Of a DNA stretch of 64,000 nt, positions 5,535-12,884 are shown in pieces. The stretch comes from a virus. The position numbers and the translations under genes were made by a program. The notes under the pieces were generated by a model that ran no database searches, was not told the origin of the DNA, and saw only the letters and a program-made list of their open reading frames with translations. Location of the stretch: positions 116,461 to 180,460 of the IMG/VR virus record IMGVR_UViG_3300032294_002877; one strand, 5' to 3'. Each line of letters starts with the position of its first letter. Position 1 is the first letter of the stretch.

Positions 5535-6651
5535 TCAATTTCAACTAAAACATTTATCGGATGTTTTATGCGACGATATAACGAATTTATTAGAAGCTCT
5601 TGGTGTCGATTTGTATAAAGATTTTGGTAAAATGATAGCTATGAGCTGTCCAGTTCATGGAGGAGACAATGAGTCGGCATTTAACTTATATCATCAAGGA
5701 GAACACTATAGAGGCAATTGGAAATGCAGAACACATAAATGTGAAGAAACATTTAAGGGTTCTATTATAGGATTTATTAGAGGCTGTATATCTCATAGCA
5801 AATACGGATGGCAAAAACCCGGAGATGAAATGTGTTCTTTCCAGGAGGCCCTCCAGTTTGCAACAGATTTTACTAAACAAGATCTAAAATCTATTAAAAT
5901 TTCCAAAAAAGCAAAAGAAAAGAACAGCTTTATTAACTCCGTTAGATATATCAAGAATACCAATAGTAGTATACTCAATAAGGTTAATAGGTCTTTTATA
6001 CGGCAGAATTTATCAATTCCGTCGGAATACTTTGTATCAAGAGGATTTTCTTCAGAGATTCTACAAAAATACGATATTGGTGAATGTACGAACCCAGATA
6101 AAGAAATGTATAATAGAGCGGTAGCGCCGATATACGACAACGATCACAAGTATATGATAGGGTGTACTGGTAGGAGTATATTTGAAAAATGTGAAAATTG
6201 TAAAGGTTTTCATGAGGTATCAGTAGTTTGTCCATCAAAGGAAGAAGCCTGGAAATACTCGAAATGGAAACATAGCTATAAATTCAAAAGCGAAGAACAT
6301 CTATATAATTTCTGGTTTGCTAAAGATTCCATAAAAGAATCATCTACAGTTATATTAGTAGAAAGTCCGGGAAATGTATGGAGACTAGAAGAGGCCGGTA
6401 TCCATAATTCTGTGGCTATTTTTGGATCATCACTAAGCGATAGACAGAAAATGATACTGGATACCTCAGGAGCAATGACTATATTTACATTAATGGATAA
6501 TGATGACGCCGGAATAAAAGCAGAAAACCAGATTATAAATAAATGTGAAAAAACCTATAACATAAAGAAGATCCCCTTTAATTATCCAGATATTGGGTCG
6601 ATGACAATAGCGCAAATACAACAGGAAATCTCACCACTACTAATAGGATAA
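5491..6651 (+). CDS. dnaG: DnaG-like DNA primase
   Basis: Zn-binding CPVH...CRTHKC, YFVSRGFS, IGCTGRS, TOPRIM ILVESPGN and MDNDDAG. The true start may be ATG 5506. Confidence 0.88.
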   Translation: MMKTIMKNKSYLSYNQFQLKHLSDVLCDDITNLLEALGVDLYKDFGKMIAMSCPVHGGDNESAFNLYHQGEHYRGNWKCRTHKCEETFKGSIIGFIRGCISHSKYGWQKPGDEMCSFQEALQFATDFTKQDLKSIKISKKAKEKNSFINSVRYIKNTNSSILNKVNRSFIRQNLSIPSEYFVSRGFSSEILQKYDIGECTNPDKEMYNRAVAPIYDNDHKYMIGCTGRSIFEKCENCKGFHEVSVVCPSKEEAWKYSKWKHSYKFKSEEHLYNFWFAKDSIKESSTVILVESPGNVWRLEEAGIHNSVAIFGSSLSDRQKMILDTSGAMTIFTLMDNDDAGIKAENQIINKCEKTYNIKKIPFNYPDIGSMTIAQIQQEISPLLIG

Positions 6652-6654
6652 ATA

Positions 6655-7437
6655 ATGCTAATTTTAGGAATATCAGGAAAGAAACAATCCGGTAAAACAA
6701 CATCCGGTAACTTTATTTTATCTGTGTTTATGACTAATTTAAATATTAGCAAAAAAATACATATAGACAATGATGGACAAATAGTTATCTCCGATCTTTT
6801 CGGAAATGAACAGTATGCTGGGGTATTCGATCTTGCTAAGAATATCAACAGTACAGACTATCTTATACAAAAAGCAATAGATACACTAAATCCACATGTT
6901 AAACTATATAGCTTTGCAGATCCGCTCAAACAAAACATATGTATGGATATGCTAGGATTATCATATAATCAATGTTATGGTACTGATGAAGATAAAAACA
7001 CATTAACATCAATACGGTGGGAAAACATACCAGGATATAATACATCTTCTAAATACGGATCGCATGATCCTAGCGGATTCATGACCGCGAGACAAGTAAT
7101 GGAAATCGTTGGTACTAATATTTTCAGATCAATGAAAAAAGACGTATGGGTCAACGCAACACTAAATAAAATTGCCAAGGAAAAACCTAAACTAGCGATT
7201 ATTACAGATTGTAGATTTCCTGACGAAATCACAGCTATAAAAAATCAAAACGGAAAAACAATAAGACTAACAAGATCAAAGTTTATTTCTGATCACGAAA
7301 GCGAATTAGTGCTAGATAAAGATAGATACGATTGGTCTAATTTTGATTTTATTGTCGAAAACAGCGAAACAAGTATATATGATCAATGTATCGAGTTACA
7401 AAACATTTTAACACAATTATCTAAAGCGACATCATGA
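6655..7437 (+). CDS. deoxynucleoside monophosphate kinase
   Basis: P-loop GISGKKQSGKTT, SFADPLKQ, TARQVMEIVGT, IITDCRFPDE, H-x-SE, as in T4 gp1-like dNMP kinases. Confidence 0.85.
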   Translation: MLILGISGKKQSGKTTSGNFILSVFMTNLNISKKIHIDNDGQIVISDLFGNEQYAGVFDLAKNINSTDYLIQKAIDTLNPHVKLYSFADPLKQNICMDMLGLSYNQCYGTDEDKNTLTSIRWENIPGYNTSSKYGSHDPSGFMTARQVMEIVGTNIFRSMKKDVWVNATLNKIAKEKPKLAIITDCRFPDEITAIKNQNGKTIRLTRSKFISDHESELVLDKDRYDWSNFDFIVENSETSIYDQCIELQNILTQLSKATS

Positions 7438-8477
7438 TAGTAACATATTTTCGTAGTTCTTCGTATAATACCCATTCTATGTGTGAGCAGCAGTACTTTG
7501 CTGAATACGTCTTGGGGTGGCGAGGTCTTTCCGGACAAAAGGCCGATAAAGGCACTATTGTGCATAAAGTTTTAGAGATTTTAGCCGTGATAAAAAAGGC
7601 TCTTCAAGATAAAATTACTAATGTAGAAGATGATATTATTGGTAAAATAGACTGTAATAAATATGATTTAGATAATATTATTAAGTCTGTATATAAGTAT
7701 TATTCAGAAGCGAACGCTCATCATAAGTGGTCTCAGAAAGACTACAAAGATTGCCATGCATGGGTCTATAAGGCTATAGAATTTAATAATGGGATGTTTG
7801 ATCCAAGGAATCGGAACATATTGTGCCCAGAGCAACATTTTGATATAGAGATCAAAAAACCCTGGTCTGCGTATTCTTACGACACAGATGAGGGGAAATT
7901 AGAAGGATATTTAGCCATTAAGGGCACAATAGATTTAATCACACTATTAGATTCAAATACCATAGAAATTATTGACTGGAAAACCGGTAGAAGACTGGAT
8001 TGGGCAACCGGTCAAGAAAAAACACAAGAGAAACTGGAAAATGACCCTCAACTAAGAATATATCACTATGCTATCAGTCATCTTTATCCCGAAATAGACC
8101 ATATCATATTTTCTATCTATTTTATTAATGATGGTGGTCCGTTCTCTATTTGTTTTGATAAATCTGATTTGCAAAAAACAGAAGATATGCTACGCAGAAA
8201 ATTTGAGATTGTCAAAAACACTAAGCGTCCCAAACTTAATAAAAGTTGGATGTGCAATAAATTATGTCATTTTGGTAAAACAACATTTGAAAACACTGCG
8301 ATTCAGCCACAAATAGAATATAGAGATAATCAAATTTGTAAGACCGGATCTGTAATGACTAAATGCGAACAAATAAAACACGATATGGACTTGCACGGCA
8401 TGGATGCTGTGGTAAACTTATACAAAAATCCTGGTCACTCGTTTGGTAAATACAAAGCACCCGGAAGCACAGAATGA
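7434..8477 (+). CDS. PD-(D/E)xK exonuclease (RecB/AddB/Cas4-like, probable Fe-S Cys ligands)
   Basis: GTIVHKVLE, GTIDLI, IIDWKTG, QLRIY; one N-terminal Cys and a C-terminal Cys cluster (CNKLC...C). Confidence 0.82.
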   Translation: MIVTYFRSSSYNTHSMCEQQYFAEYVLGWRGLSGQKADKGTIVHKVLEILAVIKKALQDKITNVEDDIIGKIDCNKYDLDNIIKSVYKYYSEANAHHKWSQKDYKDCHAWVYKAIEFNNGMFDPRNRNILCPEQHFDIEIKKPWSAYSYDTDEGKLEGYLAIKGTIDLITLLDSNTIEIIDWKTGRRLDWATGQEKTQEKLENDPQLRIYHYAISHLYPEIDHIIFSIYFINDGGPFSICFDKSDLQKTEDMLRRKFEIVKNTKRPKLNKSWMCNKLCHFGKTTFENTAIQPQIEYRDNQICKTGSVMTKCEQIKHDMDLHGMDAVVNLYKNPGHSFGKYKAPGSTE

Positions 8478-8487
8478 CCCCCTATTT

Positions 8488-8495
8488 AAAGGAGA
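8488..8495 (+). promoter_or_regulatory. Shine-Dalgarno site for ATG 8505 (true start of dnaE N-part)
   Basis: AAAGGAGA, 9 nt upstream of ATG 8505. Confidence 0.8.
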
Positions 8496-8504
8496 CAGAC
8501 TGAG

Positions 8505-10399
8505 ATGGACGTGAATAAAAGGTATGTGCCTTTACACGTCCATTCCTAGGTGAATCTCATTATTCACTTTTGGATGGACTTTCAAAACCCTCGCAGATAG
8601 CAGAAAGATGCGTCAATATTGGCGTAAACTCCTGCGCACTTACTGATCATGGAACCATATCGGGATGTGTTCAATTCTATCAAGAATTAAAAGCTAAAAA
8701 GATTAAGCCTATTCTTGGTTGTGAGCTATATTTATGTCATCAAAATGCCACAATAAAGACTAAGGACAATTCATCCCTAAGTCATTTCATAGTTTTGGCT
8801 AAAAATTTTGCCGGTTGGAAAACACTGATCAAGATAGTATCTGAAGCCAATAAACCAAATAAATTTTATCATAAGCCAAGATTAAGTATGGCTGAGTTAG
8901 CAGAATATTTAGACGGTAATATTATTGGGTTCTGTGGACATCTAGGATCATATTTGTCCAATATAATAGAAAATAAAGACGGGTCTGAATCAAAGAAGTT
9001 GGGTATAGATTTTATCTCACAGATGAATGATATTTTTGGTAAAGGCAATTTCTTTTTAGAGTCTCAGCTAATGGACCAACAGCACAATCCTGCTCAAGTA
9101 CAACTAACAGAATACATAAGAAACTTAGGTAGTGCGACAAATACAAAAGTAATATGCACTCCCGATGCTCATTATTGTGAGAAAAGCGATGCTGTTGATC
9201 AGCGCATACTCCTATGCAACAATCTAAAGACTACTCTTGTTAATATAAATAAGAGATTATTAGATAATGAAGATGTTCCGATGTCGTGTTTTTTCAGATC
9301 GGACAACTATCATATTTTATCGCCAGAAGAGATGATAGATATTCATACAGAGGAAGAAATAGATAATACAAATTATCTTAACTCATTATGCGAAGAATAC
9401 TCCATTCTTAGCAAACCATTACTTCCTCCCTTCTCTTGCCCAGACGGATACGATCCAGATGAGTATCTTAGGGAACTGTGTCGCAAAGGCTGGAGAGAAA
9501 AAATATCTAGTGTTATTGCTGAAAATGAGCAACAAGAATATCTTGATAGAATCAAATACGAACTAGAAATTTTACAGGGTGCCGGGCTTAGTAGTTATTT
9601 TTTGATTGTTCAGGATATAGTCGAGTATGTTCGTCAACAAAATTGGCTTCCGGGTGTCGGTAGAGGTAGTGCTGCCGGATGTCTGGTGTCATATTTAATC
9701 GGAATTACTAATATTGATCCAATCAAGTATAACCTTCTATTTGAAAGATTCTATAATGTTGGAAGAAATTCAGCTGATAGAATCTCAATGCCAGATATCG
9801 ATGTTGACGTTCCGATCAACAAACGAGAGCTGATCATAGAATACATAAAAAATAAATATGGTCAAGAAAAAGTATCTCAGATGATAACATATAATACTAT
9901 GAAGGGTCGCGGTGCTCTAAAAGAAGTTCTACGAGTATATGATAATATAACTTTTGAAGAGATGAATAAAATAACCAAAAATATACCTGATGAGGCTAAA
10001 ATAGCGGACGAATTACAAGAGATGAAAGAAGATACTGGCGAATCCTCGATCATACGCTGGGCATTAGAAAATAATGTTGACAAACTCAAAGAGTGGTGCT
10101 ATATTAATACTGATGGCACCCTGGCTGGGCCGTTGTCAAAAAGGTTTGAGCAGGCTATTCGTTTAGAGGGAACTAAATCTAATCAATCCAAACATGCGGC
10201 TGGAGTTGTGATATCTAGTCAAGAATTATCGAGTGTTTGTCCGATGGTTTATGATAGCAAAAATGATCAAGCAATAGCTGGTATGGAGATGCAAGATTTA
10301 GAAGCGATTGGTGTAATCAAGTTCGATATTTTAGGTATCGCTTTATTAGACAAAATGATGAACATATCAGACGTACTAAAAAATGGAGACTCTTTATGA
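8505..10399 (+). CDS. dnaE: DNA polymerase III alpha (DnaE), N-terminal part (PHP + palm). Coding is discontinuous: 8505-8546 joined to 8558-10399.
   Basis: 8505-8546 encodes MDVNKRYVPLHVHS, then TAG. The frame from 8558 encodes HYSLLDGLSKP...LTDHG...LGCELY...TPDAHY...GRGSAAG...SMPDIDVD...KFDILG. Joined, they give a canonical PHP N-terminus. Confidence 0.9.
8544..8557 (+). other. candidate translational bypass element (take-off TCC 8544-8546, stop TAG 8547-8549, landing TCT 8555-8557)
   Basis: An 11-nt non-coding insert inside the conserved HxHS-HYSLLDG motif, with matched Ser codons and a stop directly after the take-off codon. Confidence 0.6.
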
Positions 10400-10575
10400 T
10401 TAAAACATTTGCAGAATTACCGGTTGGTGCTAGATTTTCGGTAGATAATATTGAATATATAAAAACAGAAACAATCAGAGTTAGCTGCTGTCAAAGCATA
10501 AATGCTGAACAAGTAGCCAATGCGTCAGTTAAGAACTTTTTTGCAGACGATAAAGCGGTAAATATTAATGCCTAA
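10396..10575 (+). CDS. small 59-aa protein not in the ORF track (MIKTFAELPVGARF...VSCCQ...NINA)
   Basis: ATGA overlap with the dnaE-N stop, GGAG upstream, overlaps the exonuclease start by 8 nt, fills the gap exactly. Confidence 0.7.
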   Translation: MIKTFAELPVGARFSVDNIEYIKTETIRVSCCQSINAEQVANASVKNFFADDKAVNINA

Positions 10576-11263
10576 TTTCCAAAAAATTTGTGTCTTTGAT
10601 CTGGAAACGGACGGATCGAATCCAGACAAGTGTAGTCCTGTACAAATAGCGGCTGTGATGGTTGATCCATTGTCTTTGGATATTGTTCCAAATTCAGAAT
10701 TCAATATTAATCTCAAACCAGAAGCTATTGAGGACAATCCTGAATATGCATATGCAGATAGCGATGTGTTAGACTTTCATGCTAAAGTTAGGGGATCTTC
10801 TAAGCAGGAGATTTTGAACGAATGGAAAGGATATCAGAAACAGGATCTAGGATGGAAATTATTTGTTTCGTATCTAGAGATGTATCATATCAGATCCGAT
10901 AAAAAATCTTGTTTTACGGCTCCTATTGCTGGTGGATTTAATATAAATAGGTTTGATCTAAGAATTATAGATAGGCTTAGCGTGAAATATAATAATCTAA
11001 ATAAAGAAGGTAGAAGCTCCTTATTCTATCCTAGAGATGTTATAGATGTAATGAATATGTTATTTTATTGGTTTGAAGGCAATAATGAGCTCAAGAACTA
11101 CACACTAGATAATCTTAGAGATTACTTAGGATTAAGCAAAGAAGGGGCTCATGACGCATTGAAGGACGTCAAAGATACGGCCCAGATACTTGTAAGGTTT
11201 CTAAAGTTACACAGAAATTTATCCAAGAAAGTAAAATTTAAGGGATCGTTTGTTAATGTCTGA
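10568..11263 (+). CDS. dnaQ: DEDDh 3'-5' exonuclease (DnaQ/epsilon-like)
   Basis: ExoI VFDLETDG, ExoII GFNINRFDL, ExoIII AHDALKDV. Confidence 0.85.
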   Translation: MPNFQKICVFDLETDGSNPDKCSPVQIAAVMVDPLSLDIVPNSEFNINLKPEAIEDNPEYAYADSDVLDFHAKVRGSSKQEILNEWKGYQKQDLGWKLFVSYLEMYHIRSDKKSCFTAPIAGGFNINRFDLRIIDRLSVKYNNLNKEGRSSLFYPRDVIDVMNMLFYWFEGNNELKNYTLDNLRDYLGLSKEGAHDALKDVKDTAQILVRFLKLHRNLSKKVKFKGSFVNV

Positions 11264-12884
11264 ATACTTTGTTTTTGACTGCGGATGCAAATTCCGTGTT
11301 TTGGATAACAGCGGAGAATTTCCTCTGATAGATTTTTCTCCAAAATTAGAGAATATTAATTTATCATGTTCTAGAACCTGGGATCTGATTAGTTCTGGAA
11401 ATACTAAGGGTTGTTTTCAGTTAGAGTCTAGATTAGGACAAATGATGGCTAAAAAATTAAAGCCAGAGAATATAGAACAACTCTCGGCCTTAATTGCTGT
11501 GCTCAGACCAGGAACATTGGAGGCCATACGAGACGGTAAAAGCGTCACCAATCACTATATAGATAAAAAGAACGGTCTTGAGTCTATAGACTATTTCCAT
11601 ACTGCTTTAGAGCCTATTCTAGATAAAACGTATGGAGAAATGATATATCAAGAACAAGCGATGGAAATTGCACAAACCATAGCGGGCTTCGATCTAAAAG
11701 AAGCGGACATGTTACGTAAAGCTATTGGTAAGAAAAAACCCGAGGAAATGGCCAAATTGAAAAACAAATTCATAGATGGATCTGTGAAGCAAAATATAGT
11801 CACGGAATCACAAGCAGAAGAAATTTTCGGATGGATTCAGAAAAGCCAACGATATAGCTTTAATAAATCGCATTCTGTTAGTTATGCTATTAATGCATAT
11901 GTATCTGCGTATGCAAAAGCTCATTTTCCGAGAGTTTTTTTTGCTTCTTATCTAAAATTTGCTAAAGACAAAATAGACCCTCAAAGAGAAATTAAAGAAT
12001 TGGTTAGAAATGCTAATGAGATGGATATTGGAGTAAGAACACCAGATTTCAGGAATCTAAACAGGTTCTTTCTGATTAAAAACAAAGAGATCTATTTTGG
12101 ATTAACCGATATTAAAGGTGTCGGAGACTCTGTATATAAAAAAATAATAGATCTATGTAAGGATATAGATTTATCCAAAGCTAGCTGGCTAGACATTCTA
12201 TTTAAAATATTATTGAATATTAATTCTACTGCGAGCAAAGCACTGATAAGCAGTGGAGCTATAGATTATTTTCATAAAAATAGAACAGAAATGCTATTTG
12301 AGTATGAGGTAGTATCTTCTTTTACTAAAAAAGAAATAGAAAAACTAATTGCTCTATATGAACAAGATCATAATATATCAGATTTAAATAAACTAATAGA
12401 ATTAGGTATTAATGGTTCTATAGCGAATAAAAATAGAATAGAGATTTTTAAGAATTTACTAAAATCTTTACGTCATCCTCCGTATTCACTAACGGATAAA
12501 ATAGAGTGGTTGTCTGATTCTGAAAATTCTTTACTAGGAGTATCAATAACTTGTTCGAAGCTAGACTCATACGATATAGAGATGACTAATACTAATTGTA
12601 AAACTTTTAAGACGACTCTATTATCTGATAAGATTGTTATAGCAGGAGAGATAACGAATATAAATGTTGTTAAAACAAAGACTGGTAAAAATCCGGGACA
12701 AGAGATGGCTTTTATAAGTATAGAGGATCAGACAGGCATACTGGATTCAGTCATAATGTTTCCGGAGCAATGGTCTAATTTCAAATCTCATTTATTCGTT
12801 GGAAATGTTCTGATTTTTGTAGGGAATAAGGCGAAAAACAAGGACGGTCTTATAGTTGAAAAGTGTTTTGTTCCGCGAACTTGA
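11256..12884 (+). CDS. dnaE: DNA polymerase III alpha (DnaE), C-terminal part (fingers, HhH, OB fold)
   Basis: GCFQLES, LRPG, IYQEQAM, ADMLRKAIGKKK, YSFNKSHSVSYA, FGLTDIKGVG, OB fold AGEIT...MAFISIED. ATG 11256 is preferred. Confidence 0.9.
   Translation: MSEYFVFDCGCKFRVLDNSGEFPLIDFSPKLENINLSCSRTWDLISSGNTKGCFQLESRLGQMMAKKLKPENIEQLSALIAVLRPGTLEAIRDGKSVTNHYIDKKNGLESIDYFHTALEPILDKTYGEMIYQEQAMEIAQTIAGFDLKEADMLRKAIGKKKPEEMAKLKNKFIDGSVKQNIVTESQAEEIFGWIQKSQRYSFNKSHSVSYAINAYVSAYAKAHFPRVFFASYLKFAKDKIDPQREIKELVRNANEMDIGVRTPDFRNLNRFFLIKNKEIYFGLTDIKGVGDSVYKKIIDLCKDIDLSKASWLDILFKILLNINSTASKALISSGAIDYFHKNRTEMLFEYEVVSSFTKKEIEKLIALYEQDHNISDLNKLIELGINGSIANKNRIEIFKNLLKSLRHPPYSLTDKIEWLSDSENSLLGVSITCSKLDSYDIEMTNTNCKTFKTTLLSDKIVIAGEITNINVVKTKTGKNPGQEMAFISIEDQTGILDSVIMFPEQWSNFKSHLFVGNVLIFVGNKAKNKDGLIVEKCFVPRT

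Follow-up and report, generated by a model that had tools for sequence, protein, structure and literature searches.

A stop-codon interruption in the DNA polymerase III gene of a phage family: a candidate for short translational bypassing associated with a homing endonuclease

The 64,000-nt stretch analysed here (positions 116,461 to 180,460 of the IMG/VR record IMGVR_UViG_3300032294_002877, below called the window) is part of a virus of 180,460 bp, whose record is rated complete by CheckV. Its gene for the alpha subunit of DNA polymerase III (Pol III), dnaE, is broken after codon 14 by 11 nt beginning with a stop codon. This interruption, a candidate site of programmed translational bypassing, is the subject of the present report (Table 1; coordinates refer to the window). 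Omission of 8547-8557 yields ...PLHVHSHYSLLDG..., i.e. the canonical DnaE PHP motif in frame (HVHSHYSLLDG). Starting with CAT 8558, HYSLLDGLSK... is encoded in frame 2, which is open until 10399 and leaves a downstream frame of 613 codons intact. The Pfam match to PHP on 8558-10399 lacks the first 6 positions of the profile. The original prediction for this DNA had described a leader starting with ATG 8505, a TAG at 8547 and an 11-nt gap whose removal restores the PHP motif, and this anatomy was confirmed base for base.

The whole genome contains one Pol III alpha gene and no polymerase of family A or B, and a search of the whole genome revealed no second polymerase able to make dnaE dispensable. 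As the sole polymerase gene of this genome, dnaE must be expressed. A pattern scan of the genome for other Ser stop-hop sites gave scattered matches only; the analysis covered the dnaE site.

Table 1. Features at the interrupted dnaE gene and downstream of it (ORF, open reading frame; SD, Shine-Dalgarno)
Feature	Position	Strand	Remarks
Mini-ORF, MTPYLKETD and stop	8474..8503	+	Start shares bases (ATGA) with the stop codon of the PD-(D/E)XK nuclease gene upstream; evidence: sequence
SD sequence of the leader ORF, AAAGGAGA	8488..8495	+	AAGGAG-type motif 8-10 nt 5' of the leader ATG in aligned relatives
Leader ORF, 14 codons, MDVNKRYVPLHVHS	8505..8546	+	Start ATG 8505-8507; first PHP strand and HxH metal ligands
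5' hairpin, 5' arm, AUGGACGUG	8505..8513	+	Contains the start codon; pairs with 8535-8543
5' hairpin, 3' arm, CACGUCCAU	8535..8543	+	Abuts the take-off codon; pairs with 8505-8513
Take-off codon UCC	8544..8546	+	Ser14
Coding gap, 11 nt, TAGGTGAATCT	8547..8557	+	UAG stop (8547-8549), anti-SD-complementary AGGUGA, landing codon
3' (take-off) hairpin	8548..8569	+	8548-8555 (AGGUGAAU) with 8562-8569 (AUUCACUU); 6-nt loop 8556-8561
Landing codon UCU	8555..8557	+	Ser; readable by the same tRNA as take-off UCC 8544; evidence: sequence
dnaE-N body	8558..10399	+	Resumes at CAU (His); rest of PHP and Pol III alpha palm (Pfam)
59-aa ORF, DEDDh/RNase_T exonuclease gene, dnaE-C	10396..12884	+	Exonuclease 10568-11263; dnaE-C 11250-12884 (fingers, HhH, OB)

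The interruption is not restricted to this phage. A protein-based scan of IMG/VR detected 38 relatives with 65-77% identity, 13 of which are interrupted as in the window. In the remaining 25 the gene is uninterrupted: its ATG shares bases with the stop codon of the nuclease gene located upstream, and the start reads, e.g., MKNYIPLHVHSHYSLLDG. These uninterrupted relatives, with identities of up to 77%, contain the motif without any extra residue. A search of IMG/VR with a junction pattern revealed 54 true cassettes, and a loose pattern applied to JGI/ENA metagenomes revealed 41 further contigs, partly overlapping with the IMG/VR set. More divergent cassettes were recovered with a pattern fixing the downstream codons only. 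Overall, there are about 50-55 distinct cassette sequences, a recurrence well beyond what chance could produce. An assembly error or a one-off mutation is ruled out by this recurrence in many independent contigs, and the possibility that the window copy is a single accident among uninterrupted relatives, considered in the original prediction, has to be rejected. Genes with and without the interruption are intermingled on the DnaE-N tree (quick tree), where well-supported branches require at least 4 changes between the two forms. A nucleotide search of cultured phages gave only one match of 59 bases at 83%, and in a protein search of a phage collection comprising cultured isolates and uncultured assemblies the closest record was at most 34% identical.

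Conservation was counted over 52 unique relatives, some of which are named below by L numbers. The take-off codon is UCU or UCC in 52/52, where the third search pattern fixed TCY at this position and the pattern fixing only the downstream codons did not. The stop codon is UAA or UAG in all 52 and never UGA, even where the pattern permitted UGA. Within the leader Tyr and the H.HS residues are kept in 52/52, Leu likewise in 52/52 via all 6 of its codons, and Pro in 50/52 via 4 codons. The leader is under selection at the protein level; therefore it is translated and its sequence matters.

The gap itself varies. Lengths of 9, 10, 11, 12, 14 and 15 nt were found, and for 25 of 36 junction types (37 types with L144) the resume codon is immediately preceded by UCN. 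Conserved gaps of variable length with a stop, which the original prediction had named as something to look for in related phages, do exist. A UCN landing codon occurs at all six lengths (TAAGTG-TCT, TAGGTGA-TCT, TAGGTGAA-TCT, TAAGTGAGA-TCA, TAGGGGAAAAA-TCA and TAGGAGAGAAAG-TCA). Therefore all three reading-frame offsets are used, which one hop covers and no single frameshift does. Among the 20 junction types without an in-frame ATG, GTG or TTG, 18 carry a UCN landing codon, and these codons before the point of resumption fit a hop better than frameshifting. Twelve types, including L144, have an unmatched landing codon (ACU, GCU, GCC, UUU), and 10 of these contain an in-frame GTG or ATG; the association of unmatched landing codon and in-frame start has a Fisher p of 0.004, the junction types being phylogenetically non-independent. 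The AGGUGA of the window gap (8548-8553) has its counterparts in AGGGGA (L123) and AGGAGA (L140), located 5-6 nt before the landing codon. These SD-like bases also serve as an arm of the hairpin, at distances from the landing codon that vary between 0 and 6 nt.

Two hairpins flank the take-off codon; both co-vary and are under selection. The 5' hairpin, proposed earlier for 8509-8539, is real but longer than had been assumed: besides the arms 8505-8513 and 8535-8543 it comprises an inner pairing of 8518-8522 with 8529-8533. In all cassettes 7-9 of the 9 positions of its arms can pair, compared to 3-6 of 9 in uninterrupted genes. Compensatory pairs are found at position 5 (A-U 29, G-U 12, C-G 6, U-G 3), position 6 (C-G 41, A-U 9) and position 7 (G-C 28, A-U 18, G-U 3). 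The swaps change amino acids jointly, e.g. MD/HVH with GAC:GUC versus MA/HCH with GCA:UGC. The His codon before the take-off codon is CAT in 52/52 and so pairs with AUG.

At the stop codon, the small hairpin ATTCC/GGAAT around the UAG that had been proposed by eye is not the conserved one. The conserved structure pairs 8548-8555 with 8562-8569: its first base is the second one of the stop codon, and it joins the gap to codons +2 to +4. Of the landing codon, the first base (8555) closes the stem; the other two lie in the loop, as does the complete resume codon. This hairpin is 98.9% paired on alignment A1 and persists in all variants, among them L123 and L140, in which both arms have an entirely different sequence; the variants with gaps of 14 and 15 nt have rebuilt hairpins. 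The window region folds better than shuffled sequences (z = -2.7). RNAalifold and the minimum free energy fold also offer an outer helix (8538-8545/8572-8579), which we do not claim: it is invariant, the same codons are present in the uninterrupted L104, and it may reflect coding only. It would compete with the 5' hairpin for GUCC.

From these features we consider it probable that the gene is read by a true hop, with take-off from UCC while UAG is in the A site, 11 nt slid over, landing on UCU and decoding continued from CAU. The core of the original prediction, a short programmed bypass in which the Ser codons match, take-off is followed directly by a stop and stem-loops flank the site, is the best-supported explanation after comparison of about 50 natural variants. 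The ribosome would start at AUG 8505, synthesize MDVNKRYVPLHVHS and stall with peptidyl-tRNA-Ser on UCC 8544 and UAG in the A site. The tRNA would then release the mRNA, the 11 nt would slide through, and the tRNA would re-pair with UCU 8555, so that decoding could be resumed at CAU 8558. The predicted product is a single DnaE-N chain with an intact HVHSHYSLLDG motif and the junction peptide YVPLHVHSHYSLLDGLSK. The two co-varying hairpins are the likely stimulators. At take-off, the 3' arm of the 5' hairpin would lie inside the ribosome and could re-zip with the 5' arm only as the mRNA exits, which would bias the movement in the forward direction, by roughly the length of the gap. The same idea of a forward bias by a 5' hairpin is proposed for gene 60 of phage T4 in a 2024 preprint (10.1101/2024.12.09.627546).

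Several observations weigh against the proposed hop. The whole nascent chain has 14 residues, while a nascent-peptide signal would be located about 14-30 residues from the P site; with such a leader a long signal of this kind is therefore impossible, and what is conserved in the chain is the PHP motif. No stop codon interrupts the -1 frame within the 11-nt gap. No tRNA-Ser for UCN is present among the 11 tRNAs of the phage genome; its sole tRNA-Ser has the unusual anticodon ACU (ARAGORN; G000:C1:19951-20037, outside the window). Furthermore, the 10 unmatched junction types with an in-frame start suggest that at least these lineages can do without a codon-matched hop. In two relatives, each known from a single contig (L160, L144), TAGGTGGGCT precedes GAA or CAT, which provides neither a match nor a start. 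The L144 and L160 junctions may be sequencing errors in a G run, or a sign that landing tolerates a match of two of the three bases.

Among the alternatives, termination at UAG followed by a restart nearby is unlikely for the window but has the most in its favour. The leader would be released, and the ribosome would begin anew, either on a start codon (TTG 8570 in the window, GTG or ATG in relatives) or through re-pairing of the deacylated tRNA-Ser at UCU with no initiator tRNA involved; the 14-aa peptide would either contribute the first PHP strand in trans or not be needed. The frequent in-frame GTG or ATG in the unmatched junction types speaks for such a restart, as do single-base deletions, e.g. 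GGGTCT to GGGCT, that are tolerated where the resume codon is ATG. The SD-like AGGUGR in the gap fits as well, the hairpin would couple the two ORFs, and the polymerase is a non-covalent two-gene enzyme already. Sliding and reinitiation of 70S ribosomes is documented in PMC11194080. On the other side, neither in the window nor in 17 other junction types are the HYSL codons preceded by an in-frame ATG, GTG or TTG, and these codons are nonetheless conserved, with synonymous changes in Ser. TTG 8570 lacks an SD sequence and is an unlikely start: some relatives use CTG as the second Leu codon, and their next start is found 43 codons further on, so the TTG start is not conserved. All 13 sequences of the ATG type retain an intact PLHVHS leader. 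We know of no precedent for a free 14-mer that serves as a barrel strand with two metal ligands. Relatives with unmatched landing codons possess an in-frame GTG or ATG in almost every case, and for them reinitiation has to be taken seriously as an alternative. Possibly, then, there are two modes of expression in this one family, a codon-matched hop and, in some lineages, a restart.

Frameshifting would leave a longer motif. By a -1 shift at CAU UCC UAG, the tRNA-Ser would slip onto UUC and the gap would be translated, inserting LGES between HVHS and HYSLLDG. None of the gaps of 11 or 14 nt contains a stop in the -1 frame, UUC is a near-cognate codon of the GGA anticodon, and slippage is promoted when the A site holds a stop. 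This reading is nevertheless quite improbable: the site, C AUU CCU AG, is no slippery heptamer of the type X XXY YYZ, the gaps of 9, 12 and 15 nt would require readthrough instead, and those of 10 nt would require a +1 shift, which is blocked by UGA in L062, L127, L045 and L051. The would-be inserts comprise 3-5 aa and vary in sequence with their hairpin partner rather than by codon degeneracy; they would fall into the motif that is the most conserved of the domain, and uninterrupted relatives tolerate no insertion in it. A +1 shift of the release factor 2 (RF2) type is ruled out by the +1 frame AGG UGA at 8548-8553 (TGA at 8551); a UGA lies in the +1 frame of the gap TAGGTGATCT (L062, L127), too. 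Stop readthrough alone was already regarded as insufficient, and this holds: with TAG read as sense, frame 0 gives VNLIIHFWMDFQNPRR, which is no DnaE sequence, and then a second TAG. Finally, the 11 nt might be removed from the RNA by some micro-excision or editing, or the gene copy might be dead or misassembled; both are highly improbable. Nothing positive points to an excision, but UCY...UCN direct repeats flank the gap, so that it would be equally precise. For a self-splicing or BHB micro-intron, no Rfam match was obtained on 8300-8800 at E values up to 1, and a search of 8300-9000 for a promoter, a terminator or a known RNA family found none. To our knowledge, 11 nt is below the size of any self-splicing intron. 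A dead or misassembled copy is contradicted by the same architecture in many independent assemblies and by a gene that is the only one for a polymerase in a complete genome, with an intact downstream frame and a leader under purifying selection.

The surroundings of the leader in the relatives point to the origin of the cassette. In some cassette-bearing relatives an ORF of 238-253 aa ends within the leader. The 240-aa ORF of L004 matches a PHROG endonuclease (7e-22), HNH (7e-17) and also endonuclease VII families, and has an N-terminal helix-turn-helix. In L004, L042 and L165 this HNH-type ORF is located between the leader and a leftover native 5' exon, which in L004 reads MKNYIPLHVHAH followed by a stop and is similar in the other two. 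Judged from their sequence, these upstream exon remnants, longer than the mini-ORF of the window, appear to be leftovers of the native dnaE start. Full copies of the endonuclease are present in six relatives (L004, L042, L165, L051, L060, L070) and a divergent one in L140. C-terminal fragments of it directly adjoin the leader in L144, L064, L117 and L045, and L069 shows a partial match of 103 aa on a short upstream stretch. Next to the gap of the window the endonuclease gene is absent, only a 27-nt spacer and the mini-ORF 8474-8503 remain, and a search for an endonuclease homologue elsewhere in this genome found none.

Because relatives keep the exon leftover, the HNH-type ORF and the leader, and the window lacks the ORF, we regard the window copy as an endonuclease-less derivative. 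By this comparison the cassette appears to belong to an HNH homing-endonuclease element that was lost in the window phage. The endonuclease would have split dnaE at the PHP motif and brought a replacement 5' exon, and its gene would later have been deleted here. Uninterrupted relatives start dnaE at the same ATGA as the mini-ORF, a probable leftover of the native dnaE start. The mini-ORF has nine codons, and its stop ends 1 nt before the leader ATG; it could link initiation of the leader, with its AUG hidden inside the 5' hairpin, to the translation of the nuclease gene located upstream. The effect of the gap is probably to eliminate the target of the endonuclease without altering the protein. 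Protection of the site from the endonuclease is a more natural origin than rate-limiting synthesis of the polymerase, which had been suggested before. The bypass core of the original prediction is supported, but the HNH homing-endonuclease origin, with the gene intact in some relatives and lost here, had been missed.

A shorter second HNH-like ORF was found in L003 (1296-1829) and also in L008, L041 and L064, about 1.2-1.5 kb upstream of the leader between the genes for a deoxynucleoside monophosphate (dNMP) kinase and a nuclease. It shares 35-42% identity with the cassette endonuclease over the C-terminal half of the latter and looks like another homing site in the replication module.

Downstream, dnaE is split into two genes (8505-12884), with dnaE-N (PHP and palm) ending at 10399 and dnaE-C located at 11250-12884, and all junctions overlap. 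No signs of an intein were detected at this split. The gene order around dnaE, including the split, is the same in interrupted and uninterrupted relatives. The uninterrupted L030 carries two additional ORFs (146 and 191 aa; 5736-6751) between the exonuclease gene and dnaE-C. More than half of the window is occupied by very large ORFs on the minus strand (22186-57581; 2318, 2191, 676, 252, 871, 1577, 2184 and 1583 aa).

We know of no programmed translational bypassing established in bacteria or phages outside the T4 gene 60 family. With T4 gene 60 and its endonuclease MobA the present locus shares a stem-loop at the stop, a second stem-loop 5' of the take-off codon and, possibly, an SD-like purine run in the gap. 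In both cases a conserved and essential gene of replication is split by a homing endonuclease, which supplies a homologous exon as a substitute, and there are relatives in which the endonuclease is decayed or lost and the gap persists. For T4 MobA such a decay series, with the gap protecting the invaded allele from the nuclease, is described by Manning & Atkins (bioRxiv 10.1101/2022.08.31.505936). The 3' hairpin starts one base past the take-off codon, like the take-off stem-loop of gene 60. In contrast to gene 60, the gap comprises 9-15 nt instead of 50, the take-off tRNA is Ser instead of Gly, and the site is codon 14 of dnaE instead of codon 46 of a topoisomerase gene. Furthermore, the landing codon is located at and in the loop of the take-off hairpin, and the long nascent-peptide signal essential in gene 60 has no room in a leader of 14 aa. 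The resemblance to the gene 60 cassette is one of organisation, and the hop and its efficiency are inferred here.

In the synthetic stop-hops of Weiss et al. 1987 in E. coli, as in the event proposed here, peptidyl-tRNA departs from a codon adjacent to a stop and finds a matching codon a few bases further downstream, whatever the frame. Those hops are artificial and of low efficiency, whereas here the hop would be natural and conserved, flanked by two selected hairpins and required for an essential gene. The review by Atkins et al. 2016 (PMC5009743), in which the synthetic stop-hops are covered, states that a natural in-frame stop-hop is not known and that shorter natural counterparts of bypassing are "long presumed". 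The byp elements in mitochondria of Magnusiomyces capitatus (27-55 nt) are likewise short mobile inserts bypassed in essential genes, with take-off and landing codons sometimes matched in two of three bases only, as in the ACU and GCU variants found here. They differ in their mitochondrial location and in having an unused sense codon instead of a stop in the A site; moreover, their bypassing is thought to be context-independent and involves no endonuclease. For Streptomyces phage terminase genes, bypassing of a short coding gap has likewise been put forward on the basis of sequence (PMC10732093, the part cited here). That candidate depends on UUA, a rare codon, and is assigned a possible role in regulation; a homing-endonuclease cassette does not figure in the part cited. 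A full-text literature search for dnaE or the PHP motif in connection with bypassing found no paper.

The more general reading is a natural minimal bypass, in which 9-15 nt are hopped at a stop without a long nascent-peptide signal, driven essentially by two hairpins in the mRNA, of which one contains the start codon and re-zips in the wake of the ribosome, and evolved by a homing endonuclease in favour of an uncuttable target with an unchanged protein, some lineages having drifted to termination and reinitiation. For this complete scenario we see the chances as evenly balanced. If the hop is true, it would be a very rare way to read a gene and an independent second origin of bypassing in phages and bacteria. 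The element is shorter than 90 nt and lets the features sufficient for release and relanding of the ribosome be tested, and the approximately 50 natural variants are a ready mutagenesis series in gap length, landing codon, stop identity and hairpin arms. For annotation the family is a warning, as such phage polymerases are routinely called truncated. For homing endonucleases it would represent a second way, beside inteins and introns, to inhabit an essential gene. Within this one phage family, the relatives would then form a natural series linking bypassing to coupled restart.

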